Translations under genes and position numbers: made by a program
Shown here: positions 8,284-15,104 of the stretch, piece after piece
How the letters are laid out: each line of letters begins with the position of its first letter
Position numbering within the stretch: position 1 is the stretch's first letter
Notes under the pieces: model-generated
What the model saw: only the letters and a program-made list of their open reading frames with translations
Database searches by the model: none
Told to the model about the DNA's origin: nothing
NCBI GenBank assembly: GCA_049971295.1
Contig: JBMFLH010000046.1
Span: forward strand, 1 to 15,104
DNA: 15,104 nt
Source: Candidatus Ratteibacteria bacterium
GTDB taxonomy: Bacteria > Ratteibacteria > UBA8468 > B48-G9 > DTJG01
Direction of reading: 5' to 3'

Positions 8284-8791
8284 CAATCCATGCATCAATC
8301 TTTCCATAATCTTCAAAACTCAAGATAGCACCAAAAAAGAGTTTGTAGGATTATCCGGGAAATTTTTTTCAAAGGCCTGTTCTATCTTTCTGGCATCCCC
8401 CCTGTAAATTTTGTAAAGATATGCCAGGTCAAAGACGTCTCTTGGGGCAATTTTTGGGCCTGAAACATAAATTTTGTTCAGAAACAAATCATAATCAGAA
8501 GCAATTCTGATTTCCAGAAATTTTTCAATTCTTTCTATATTCTTGAATGGAAAAAACACAAATGAAACCCTGATATTCTGAATATAGAAATCAACATTGT
8601 CCTGAAATTCTTCGTATCTCTGCACTGTGTGGGTTTTTTTAATTTTTGATAAATGTGTCTGAATGAGAAAGTATGTGTTGGTTGAAAAAATCAAGATCTT
8701 TGCTTTCTCTGTGCATGTGCCACAACATAATTGCTGTGCGTGTGTCCCACAGGTATCTCTGAAATTTTTTCGGGATATGTACCTGGTGCAT
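8255..8791 (-). pseudogene. Degraded antitoxin + AbiEii/AbiGii-family nucleotidyltransferase toxin remnant
   Basis: Frame 1 (ATG 8791 to TAA 8639): MHQVHIPKKFQRYLWD-TRTAIMLWHMHRESKDLDFF, containing the AbiEii motif TA.ML...HR.S.DLDFF without the leading GG. Frame 2 (ORF 8320..8694): IRVSFVFFPF...IRIASDYDLFLNK...RDVFDL. Frame 3 (about 8350 to TGA 8255): SYKLFFGAILSFEDYGKIDAWIVDTLEQLKV. Confidence 0.8.
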
Positions 8792-8890
8792 AAATTCTGG
8801 TTTTATTCTTTTCAATGTGTGATTTTTGATAATGGACTTTTTCTCCCTTTATTGATTGTACACCATCAGGCAATGATTTTCAATGGTCAT

Positions 8891-12736: not shown

Positions 12737-13795
12737 ATGGATGGAAGGGTAAAAATTGTATTTGTTGGAGTAGGTGCAATGGGGCAGTGCGCTCATCTAA
12801 AACACTATGCCCTGATTCCTGATTGTGAAATTGTTGCAATATGTGAAAAGAAAAATTTGCTTGCCTCAAACGTTGCGTCAAAATATGGGATTGAGAAAGT
12901 GTATCACGATTTTTCAGAAATGCTTGAAAGAGAAAAATTTGACGCAATTGTCTCTTCACAGCCATTTACAAGGCATCTTGTGATGTTAAGAGAATTGCTG
13001 AAGGCAAAAAAACCTGTATTTATTGAAAAACCCCTTGCTGGTTCTGTTGAAGCAGGCGAAAAGATTGTTGAACAAATTAAAAAGGCAGGAACCTGGGTAA
13101 TGGTTGTTTACCATAAAAGAAATGACCCAGCAGTGATTTATGCAAAAGAAAAAATAGAATGTTTTAAGCAAACAGGTGAAATCGGAAAAATGACATACAT
13201 CAGAATGACCATGCCTCCTGGTGATTGGGTCGCAGGCGGATTTCACGATTTGATAAAGACAGAAGAAGCACTTTCCCTGGATTTTGACCCGATTCCTGAA
13301 AACATGGATAAAGGCACATTCAATCTGTACCTTGAATTTGTCAACTATTAAATTCACCAAGTGAATCTCATCAGATACCTATTTGGTGAGTCATACAAGG
13401 TGAAATATGCAGACAGGACAGGTGTTTTGAGGGTAGTTGAAAGTATTTCCGGTATACCCGGCATCATTGAAATGTCTCCATATAGGACTTCCCTCGACTG
13501 GCAGGAAAAGGCGCTTGTGTGTTTTGAAAAGGGTTTTATCGAAATATCACTGCCTGCTCCGCTTGCGTGTAACAGGGCAGGAAAAGTAAAAATTTATAGA
13601 GACATACCTTCTCCAGAAACAAGGATCCCTACACTTCCTCCCATCAGTGCCATGTATCAGCAGGCAATGAATTTTGTTCTTTCTATAAAGGGTGAAGCAA
13701 AACCCGCATGTTTTGCAGAAGAGGCATTAGAGGATTTGAGGATTGCACGCGACTACACAAAAATGCTTTGCACGGAAACGCGTAGTCAGGTATAA
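12737..13795 (+). pseudogene. Gfo/Idh/MocA family oxidoreductase interrupted by an in-frame TAA
   Basis: GVGAMG Rossmann motif and FIEKPLA. ORFs 12737..13351 and 13361..13795 share a frame and read FVNY*IHQVNLIRYLFG, with the stop at 13349-13351 just before the conserved His. Confidence 0.85.
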
Positions 13796-13822: not shown

Positions 13823-14857
13823 ATTAAAGCGTTAATTCTTTTAGGTGGTTTCGGAACAAGGTTGAGACCGTTTACACTTACTACTCCGAAATCCCTTCTT
13901 CCTGTTGCCTGTATACCTTTGATTTATTATCAGTTTGAACTACTCGCAAAACATGGAATAAATAGCGTAATTCTTGCTATCAATCCGCATTGCAAAAGAT
14001 ACAGGGAACTTTTTACAATGGCAAAATCTCTTGGAATAAAACTATACCTGTGTTGTGAGAAAAAACCGCTTGGAACAGCAGGTGCAATAAGAAACGCAAA
14101 GAAATTTCTACAGGATGGTCCATTTTTCGTATTCAATGGAGATATTCTTACTGATTGCAATCTCACACAAATGTTTCAATTTCACAAAAGCTCAGGCGCT
14201 GATGTAAGTATTGCCGGGGTTGAGATACAAAACCCTGCTCACTTTGGAGTGATAATTTTTGACCAGAACAACAGGATAAAAAACTTTATTGAAAAACCGC
14301 AGCAACCAGTTTCAAAATTCATTAATGCTGGCATTTACATTATTCAACCGGATATTCTTGCTGATATCCCTTCGAATAGAGAGGTATCCATAGAAAAAGA
14401 AACATTTCCAGAATTAATAGCAAAAGGAAGGCATGTTTCTATGTATCTCCATACTGGATACTGGATGGATGTTGGAACGATTGATAATTATAAAAAAGCA
14501 AACTTTGATGCAGTTGACGGCAGGTTAAAACTTGAGTACAAAGAAAACTACTGTAACCAACTCACAACGAAAAATATCAAACTTGAAGGAAAATTGAAAA
14601 CCGCAAGAAATGTCGTGTTTGGCGAAAATGTTGTTATCAAAGGAACAGCAGTTATCGGAGACAATTGCTACATCGGAAATGGTTCTGTACTTCAAAATGT
14701 CATTCTTTTTAAGGATGTTTTTGTAGGGAAAAATTGTTTGATAGAAAATAGTATTATCGGGAATTCTGTGATTGTTGAAGAGAACTGCGAAATAAAAAAT
14801 ATTGCGGTTGGCGATAAGTGTTACCTATGTCAGTACACCCGCACAATAAAATCCTGA
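13823..14857 (+). CDS. NDP-sugar pyrophosphorylase (mannose-1-phosphate guanylyltransferase-like) with a C-terminal left-handed beta-helix
   Basis: The frame extends upstream of 13862 to ATT-AAA-GCG..., giving (M)KALILLGGFGTRLRPFT..PK.L. Also EKKPLGTAGAI, FNGDI, FIEKP, INAGIYI, SIEKETFP, YWMDVGT and hexapeptide repeats. SD AGGAG at 13811-13815. Confidence 0.88.
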   Translation: MKALILLGGFGTRLRPFTLTTPKSLLPVACIPLIYYQFELLAKHGINSVILAINPHCKRYRELFTMAKSLGIKLYLCCEKKPLGTAGAIRNAKKFLQDGPFFVFNGDILTDCNLTQMFQFHKSSGADVSIAGVEIQNPAHFGVIIFDQNNRIKNFIEKPQQPVSKFINAGIYIIQPDILADIPSNREVSIEKETFPELIAKGRHVSMYLHTGYWMDVGTIDNYKKANFDAVDGRLKLEYKENYCNQLTTKNIKLEGKLKTARNVVFGENVVIKGTAVIGDNCYIGNGSVLQNVILFKDVFVGKNCLIENSIIGNSVIVEENCEIKNIAVGDKCYLCQYTRTIKS

Positions 14858-14870
14858 AATCATTCTTTTA

Positions 14871-14944
14871 GCGCTTGTAGCTCAACAGGATAGAGCGTTA
14901 GCCTCCGGAGCTAAAGGCTGTGGGTTCGACTCCCACCAAGCGCG
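14871..14944 (+). tRNA. tRNA-Arg, anticodon CCG
   Basis: Acceptor stem GCGCTTG/CAAGCGC, D arm GCTC/GAGC, anticodon arm TTAGC-CTCCGGA-GCTAA, T arm GTGGG-TTCGACT-CCCAC, discriminator G. CCA is not encoded. Confidence 0.96.
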
Positions 14945-15104
14945 TTTCACTACTTTGAAAGGAGTCGAATGGAGCGAAGACGTATAAGTCCGAGCAAGCG
15001 AGGACTTGTGCGGCTGGCCGACCCGAGCCGTAGTGGGAGGCGAGGGCGCCGACTCCCACCAAGCGCGTTTCACTACTTTGAAAGGAGTCGAATGGAGCGA
15101 AGAC
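14927..15104 (+). repeat. tRNA-linked direct repeat with a 123-bp period, truncated by the window end
   Basis: 14927..14981 is identical to 15050..15104 (55 bp, CGACTCCCACCAAGCGCGTTTCACTACTTTGAAAGGAGTCGAATGGAGCGAAGAC). The first 18 nt are the tRNA 3' end. Confidence 0.93.

Follow-up and report, generated by a model that had tools for sequence, protein, structure and literature searches.

Among described repeats, those of the tyrT/tyrV loci of Escherichia coli (RtT RNA, rttR, RF00391) have the same order of parts as the repeat studied here. In MG1655, the tRNA 3′ end is followed by one linker, one inverted copy of the T-arm, a GA-rich core and one direct copy of the 3′ end, and three such units lie in tandem. 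The accessible text of a 2024 preprint on rttR still calls its mode of action unknown (10.1101/2024.07.17.603846). No account of the origin of the tyrT/RtT repeats was found in the searchable literature. The islands of tyrosine integrases, which are bounded by attL and attR, have a T-loop junction, a duplicated tRNA 3′ end and tandem arrays. REP/BIME sequences, GTAG- and CGTC-tagged repeats and PATEs are described, in the accessible text of two reports, as gene-less palindromes with nested modules that are mobilised in trans (PMC3733652, PMC3119063). SsnA is a single-domain GIY-YIG protein that cleaves ssDNA of one strand only, beside the hairpin repeat that belongs to it; in the accessible part of their 2025 paper, Chenal et al. 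propose an IS-like, REP-like origin (PMC11893778).

The repeat reported here closes a 15,104-nt window, by which we mean the whole stretch of DNA that was analysed; it is the entire contig C46 of a Candidatus Ratteibacteria assembly (1.89 Mb, 127 contigs). Our analysis indicated that it belongs to a real, structured, tRNA-tailored repeat family of RtT-type layout, which is not a member of RF00391, not REP and not an integrase island. The initial annotation had likened it, as a structured and protein-less tRNA-linked repeat, to the tyrT repeats, and the layout shared with E. coli bears this out. Opposite positions 57/58, the RtT arm in MG1655 and the Lys(UUU) copies of our family carry an identical GA/GA substitution. 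Different from the family, in which the direct copy starts at C56, the RtT copy starts at A58; the RtT unit is 178 bp in size, compared to 123 bp in the window, and the family here is found under 29 anticodon labels and has modular long forms. RF00391 gave no match in the window or in 3/3 genomes, with a control match in E. coli, and sequence and model matches between RtT and the family were absent in both directions. Only tRNA was matched by Rfam in the window, and a known RNA family was rejected.

The likeness to integrase islands lies in the duplicated 3′ end starting in the T-loop; unlike the islands, the elements of the family are only ∼80–260 bp in size, and the family has no integrase or cargo gene, possesses a host-matched inverted arm and occupies many tRNA types per genome. 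For REP/BIME, the GTAG- and CGTC-tagged repeats and PATEs, the accessible text describes no tie to tRNA genes (PMC3733652, PMC3119063), whereas the family is tRNA-tied. Compared to REP/REPIN or IS200/IS605, GTAG is located in a variable loop here and not in a conserved foot, and duplication is the rule, whereas those elements insert without target duplication. Ssn with its NTS/SRM repeats has ∼90-aa single-domain GIY-YIG genes and strand-specific flanking hairpins, and similar genes are tRNA-linked in the relatives studied here; however, the accessible text reports cleavage and not insertion, never mentions tRNA and describes no target tailoring (PMC11893778). None of 94 units, and none of the tRNA-linked GIY-YIG loci that were tested, contains the SRM consensus motif. 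To our knowledge, DNA insertion has been shown for no nuclease of this small GIY-YIG kind. Neither this family nor any connection between GIY-YIG genes and tRNA-linked repeats was described in the literature searched, which leaves out most subscription journals; in their accessible parts, the main texts of Geobacteraceae/Pelobacter genome papers hold nothing on the family (PMC2700814, PMC3543383, PMC2996986).

Anatomy of the repeat behind tRNA-Arg(CCG)

The tRNA-Arg(CCG) gene (14871–14944, + strand) was identified by ARAGORN. It is intact and has no encoded CCA; T54, T55 and C56 are located at 14925, 14926 and 14927, respectively. One sugar-phosphate nucleotidyltransferase gene (13862–14857, + strand) lies upstream, with its stop codon 13 nt before the tRNA, and the same gene is also found 5′ of tRNA-Arg(CCG) in relatives G002, G004 and G010. 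Further upstream in the window, one oxidoreductase ORF (12737–13351) and the ORF at 13361–13795 look like the halves of a single gene interrupted by a stop codon; two short minus-strand ORFs at 8320–8873 resemble, by eye, fragments of a type IV toxin-antitoxin pair. In the whole assembly (G000), ARAGORN did not find a tmRNA gene, and several tRNA loci end at contig breaks.

All parts of the repeat are on the + strand. The first 123-bp unit (14927–15049) is composed of C56–N73 of the tRNA, one linker, one inverted T-arm copy and the core. The linker (14945–14960), in which the first of the initially proposed stems would lie, is variable between copies; a related T-rich motif was observed behind 14 tRNA types, at 21 of 84 element loci, versus 0 of 52 element-free tRNAs. 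The inverted copy of the host T-loop and T-stem (14961–14969), which was absent from the initial annotation, is the exact reverse complement of T54–C62 (14925–14933). The conserved core (14970–15049) is ∼80 nt in length and falls in the match to our covariance model R1 (14959–15059), whose E-value of 2e-24 comes from a model that includes the window's own copy. The core contains the variable hairpin H1 (14982–15011), with one tandem GA/GA internal loop, and the right-end hairpin P3 (15017–15049), also with tandem GA/GA; such loops flank the stems. The sequence of H1 varies between copies but its pairing is retained; the hairpin originally proposed at 14981–15012 is present and kept in relatives. 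The core is followed by one direct copy of C56–N73 (15050–15067) and by the start of a second unit (15068–15104), which contains the linker, the inverted copy (15084–15092) and the left end of the core, and is cut at the contig end. As had been noticed, the unit is richer in GC than the window (61% versus 39%).

In the family, the cores are 60–260 nt in size and contain no gene; every tRNA-linked copy among those listed is in sense orientation. The long forms have extra hairpin modules, which are also found within duplicates, and nesting was seen. Arrays reach five or more units, and the final duplicate ends at variable positions.

The exact tRNA-linked repeat first recognized in the window (14927–14981 and 15050–15104, spacing 123) was confirmed. 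Its extent, given initially as 18 nt of tRNA plus 37 nt of trailer, is an artefact of k=55 graph assembly. Terminal repeats of exactly 55 nt were present at 47 of the 254 contig ends of the assembly and longer ones at none; as 55 equals the assembler k, the 18 + 37 nt split is biologically meaningless, and 55 nt was ruled out as a biological boundary. What is informative is where the repeat begins on the left, at C56 of the T-loop, and its period of 123 bp.

At its start, contig C107 carries a longer variant's right end, then C56–N73 of tRNA-Arg(CCG) and a gene that is also located 3′ of tRNA-Arg(CCG) in G002 and G010. Because the right ends on C46 and C107 are different variants with different flanks, two units are needed. 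The array behind tRNA-Arg, for which further copies had been considered possible, thus holds at least two units, the last one on C107. The tandem junction at 15049/15050 is most likely genuine, since tandem arrays lie inside the contigs of relatives (three units at L008, five or more at L468) and the array tail was found on C107. No record bridged the junction under a 31-letter rule in four DNA runs, all from other strains or taxa. Such tRNA-linked arrays break short-read assemblies at tRNA genes, so that tRNAs, and any nuclease gene linked to them, may go unnoticed.

Tailoring to the host tRNA and covariation of the core

The repeat also follows other tRNAs in this genome and in relatives, each with its own 3′ end, as the initial annotation had envisaged. 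In this genome, the inverted arm and the left end of the core were found behind 9 of 45 tRNAs; the whole core is on the contig in 4 of them. The core behind tRNA-Ser(UGA) is 97% identical to the window core, whereas its arm and duplicate match Ser instead. The core was detected at 91 of 162 distinct tRNA loci, under the 29 anticodon labels mentioned above. Among the 114 right ends with an upstream left end, 109 are directly followed by a T-loop copy. The duplicate starts at C56 in 75 of the 81 well-parsed copies, at T55 in 5 and at position 57 in 1.

The tailoring of the arm was counted over loci that are related and not independent: arm scores of at least 8 were obtained for 80 of 91 core-bearing loci, compared to 15 of 71 loci without a detected core, and at T-loop positions 57 (127/132) and 59 (130/132), which are variable, arm and host are Watson-Crick complementary. 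The GA/GA substitution at positions 57/58 is tolerated in 3/132 loci. At 22 loci the duplicate differs from the tRNA; among these likewise related loci, the arm agrees with the tRNA in 15 and with the duplicate in 1, with 6 ties. The arm is extended to G53 in 5/5 T55-start copies, which represent perhaps one to three events, and in 3 C56-start copies. GIY-YIG endonucleases make a staggered cut; the 2-nt offset between the arm end and the duplicate start is like such a cut, and we take it as a hint only.

Several unusual loci were observed. Three tRNAs of this genome (C2 79355–79427, C113 1964–2038 and C111 3378–3463) have a matched inverted arm and no core, and are probable deletion remnants. 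At L155 (1410–1610), the unit behind tRNA-Gly(UCC) has the 3′ end of tRNA-Val as its duplicate, due to inter-locus recombination or an assembly chimera. Family units at L250, L251 and L337 lie beside fragments that resemble a T-arm but belong to no complete tRNA; these may be att remnants of islands.

For structural analysis, we aligned 65 of the 89 listed short units; near-duplicates, T55-start copies and strongly gapped rows were excluded. The helix between arm and T-arm, one 2-bp inner stem and the right-end hairpin were paired in 98.7% of cells, with double changes in 15 of 19 pairs, and 0 of 500 shuffles reached that level. RNAalifold recovered the two main helices unaided. Covariation of the arm helix may arise by copying; that of the right-end hairpin, with double changes in 9/9 pairs, cannot. 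The 2-bp inner stem shows a single change and is weak. A test for covarying structure in homologues had been suggested, and for the right-end hairpin such structure was found; the stems proposed at 15011–15030 and 15033–15059, however, stayed at shuffle level, with 76.4% of cells paired versus 76.0% in shuffled alignments (94 of 500 shuffles as high). These values give no covariation support to the proposal that the unit supplies its own GTGGG for rebuilding an extended T-arm-like stem.

G-U pairing had also been read as a sign of selection on RNA. The two best-covarying stems are nearly free of G-T pairs (3/255 and 5/609 positions), and G-T pairs also form in single-stranded DNA; G-U pairs are therefore no sign of RNA here. 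The H1 hairpins of 91 cores contain 573 Watson-Crick, 40 G-T, 3 A-C and 20 other pairs, a count biased upward by choice of the best register. Compared to shuffled sequences, folding of the unit alone is mildly favoured (z −1.4 to −1.7), whereas for the tRNA together with the unit z is −3.0 as RNA and −3.5 as DNA. With RNA and with DNA parameters alike, folding favours the sense strand (23 and 25 of 30 sampled cores, respectively), so the molecule would be single-stranded; with both parameter sets favouring the same strand, folding energy is not decisive between RNA and DNA. In whole-locus folds of 67 loci, the predicted pairing of the arm is 0.46–0.73 with the real T-loop versus 0.05–0.07 with the downstream duplicate. 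Covariation alone cannot separate these partners; a main fold in which the arm pairs with that duplicate was rejected on its low predicted value.

Distribution in the phylum and candidate enzymes

The covariance model detected the family in 57 of 65 genomes of the phylum, covering all five families, and BLAST detected it in 40 of 65. In genus g8, BLAST found it in 0 of 11 genomes and the covariance model in 9 of 11; as such copies are missed by BLAST, co-occurrence screens are weak. Scanning 185,579 species genomes with one pattern returned 82 stretches; the 80 listed include sequences from Ratteibacteria, Omnitrophota, TA06 and Vermiphilus. The arm and left end are present behind 14 of 41 tRNAs examined in G057 and 2 of 22 examined in G018 (44 found), and in G022, which is 93% complete, the arm was found behind 0 of 46 tRNAs.

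Within genus g1, core identity is 84.5% for different tRNAs of the same genome (121 pairs), 79.5% for the same tRNA in different genomes (36 pairs) and 79.1% for other pairs (658 pairs). The nearest relative of 30 units is behind another tRNA of the same genome in 20 cases and behind the same tRNA of another genome in 8. The present copy number and the uniformity of the family in g1 are probably due to units recombining with each other and not to new insertions. A second palindromic repeat, with C-run and G-run arms, is often found 3′ of the last duplicate in this genus (L005, L026, L030, L035, L046 and L048). Genome G057 has a second tRNA-trailer family of the same layout, with an unrelated, longer core (L293, L294, L296, L299, L306 and L313); its arm reaches as far as roughly G52, and the 5′ side of the T-stem is part of its duplicate, which has an altered T-loop.

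One gene-breaking variant was found at 11 loci in 8 genomes. Here G53 is immediately followed by the variant; the T-loop is altered, and the arm is changed to compensate. An intact tRNA copy is located downstream at 7/11 of these loci and upstream at 1/11, and 3/11 are cut by contig ends; an obligate T-loop intron was rejected, because the interrupted gene is not the sole copy. A phage att site was searched for in viral contigs with one pattern, with 0 matches; three weak GIY-YIG relatives were found in viral contigs, none of them with the element. We saw no empty/filled strain pair, circle or intermediate.

Small stand-alone GIY-YIG genes belong to Pfam PF01541, and their nearest solved structures are UPF0213 and Slx1. 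Among 27 distinct genes of this kind in the phylum, 13 have a same-strand tRNA within 400 nt, compared to ∼1.4% expected. At L178 (two tandem units), L184, L187 and L201, the GIY-YIG gene is sandwiched between the tRNA and a copy whose first base is C56. Over the 20 nt that precede this C56, a family right end is matched at 17/20 positions in L184 and 16/20 in L201 (0/2000 shuffles as high), and at 13/20 in L187 (11/2000 shuffles); L178 shares the C56 junction but not the right end (9–10/20, chance level). In L184, the stop codon is located within the position equivalent to the right-end hairpin loop. The hairpin modules of L201 are found beside family copies (88–90%) and inside family cores (76%). 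L184, L187 and L201 are all at tRNA-Asn; they may represent one event, or a different element nested in an older family copy.

No small GIY-YIG gene was found in the 11 genomes of genus g1, in this assembly (searched with a 27-protein profile) or inside a complete family unit. Integrase, transposase, RT and GIY-YIG genes were absent among the 74 ORFs scanned of the 91 nearest downstream ORFs. RT was found in none of five genomes, and Cas1 was not found in this genome. Tyrosine recombinases of ∼300–320 aa number two per genome in 4/5 genomes, and two here. Y1 transposase is present in this genome and in 38/65 genomes of the phylum but in 4/14 family members; as the element is nearly phylum-wide, a Y1 co-occurrence screen is low in power. 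Neither the genome distribution of Y1, RT, Cas1 and extra tyrosine integrases nor the genes next to the element fitted one of them as the driver.

Other GIY-YIG loci were noted. Small genes of this type lie 5′ of an intact tRNA, mostly Asn, at L183, L192, L194, L202, L203, L214 and L215, where the gene is preceded by one broken 5′ tRNA fragment with a hairpin. Ssn-like GIY-YIG genes with flanking palindromes were found at L189, L193 and L219 (also L182, L188, L195 and L221), and matches to the SRM motif lie near the first three. At L202 (1730–2050), the anticodon arm of tRNA-Asn is interrupted by one ∼240-nt insert that resembles, by eye, a group I intron; a GIY-YIG gene lies on its upstream side and a family unit on its downstream side. 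L239 is possibly of the same kind.

Possible origin and meaning of the family

With a probability of roughly one half, we interpret the locus as a few tandem copies of a hairpin element that carries no gene, joins the tRNA at T55|C56 and is tailored to its host; the element would be non-autonomous, move as ssDNA and be mobilised in trans by small GIY-YIG nucleases. The nuclease would nick the sense strand of the transcribed tRNA gene at T55|C56, and the right end of the core would be joined to C56. The free T55 end would then re-copy C56 to about N73, which would restore the gene and leave the old tRNA 3′ end behind as the 'duplicate'. The inverted arm would pair with the new T-arm and be corrected against it; by masking the T-loop, it may protect the occupied gene from re-cutting. 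Insertion without re-copying would break the gene, and such a copy would survive only beside a whole-gene duplicate.

The GIY-YIG nuclease model is supported by the C56 junction, the arm matching the working tRNA, the covarying core and the sense orientation, as well as by the within-genome likeness of cores, the arrays and the GIY-YIG cassettes ending at C56, two of which have the family right end. Against it stands that no small GIY-YIG gene was found in genus g1 or in this assembly, where the cores are most uniform, or inside a complete family unit; the age and phylum-wide spread (57/65) also fit a host function. A tiny non-autonomous element integrating at the tRNA was one of two options offered by the initial annotation; it is the better one, but no integrase gene is adjacent (0/74 neighbours).

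It is rather unlikely that the units are a host-maintained, RtT-like structured RNA trailer, transcribed with the tRNA, in which the antisense arm, in competition with the T-arm, tunes maturation or read-through or from which a small RNA is released, and which recombination spread and homogenised. Persistence across all five families of the phylum is consistent with such a trailer, yet it is missing from all 46 tRNAs of the 93%-complete relative G022, and occupancy is patchy elsewhere (9/45 and 14/41 tRNAs). Sense orientation and a + strand without terminator-like site between tRNA and unit also speak for the trailer, whereas truncated, nested and gene-breaking copies, and ends common to nuclease cassettes, speak against it. 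The arm tracks the working tRNA, its predicted pairing with the T-loop in the precursor is 0.46 as RNA, and GA/GA at 57/58 is tolerated here (3/132) and in E. coli RtT; the covarying stems, however, have few G-U intermediates. E. coli rtT is described as RNA in the accessible text cited above (10.1101/2024.07.17.603846).

We regard as quite improbable the action of another enzyme, such as a tyrosine recombinase on a 123-bp circle at the T-loop, an HUH/Y1 transposase, a Cas1-like integrase or an RT, with the GIY-YIG cassettes as unrelated squatters at a hot spot. The fixed T-loop crossover and duplicated 3′ end are the classic integrase signature, but a simple circle would bring the 3′ end and arm of the donor, not of the recipient, and 4/5 genomes have just two tyrosine recombinases of ∼300–320 aa. 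The Y1 gene exists in this genome; however, it is present in only 4/14 family members. RT was lacking in 5/5 genomes, Cas1 was lacking here, and no such gene is among the 74 scanned neighbours, although the failure of the GIY-YIG link in genus g1 speaks for this alternative. Finally, the tandem arrangement in the window is very improbably an assembly loop around a single dispersed copy: C46 does end on a k=55 repeat, its core is 97% identical to a copy on contig C28 and no read of the other strains or taxa searched spans 15049/15050, but the differing right ends and flanks of C46 and C107 require two units and arrays lie within the contigs of many relatives; even if right, it would leave the family unaffected.

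Extending the GIY-YIG nuclease model, we tentatively suggest that RtT and these units could be non-autonomous members of an undescribed tRNA-targeting class, driven by ∼90-residue GIY-YIG nucleases, which would insert as folded single strands, have the 3′ end rebuilt and write their own shielding arm. The right end shared with the GIY-YIG cassettes is the most useful new clue. The family offers hundreds of diverged copies of one layout, a fixed junction, failed insertions and candidate ∼90-residue enzymes ending at the same base, and so brings the origin of tRNA-linked repeats within direct experimental reach, using oligonucleotides and a single small protein. Were the model right, it would mean a new site-specific route of insertion into essential genes without integrase, transposase or RT, and a possible role for minimal UPF0213/Slx1-like proteins.
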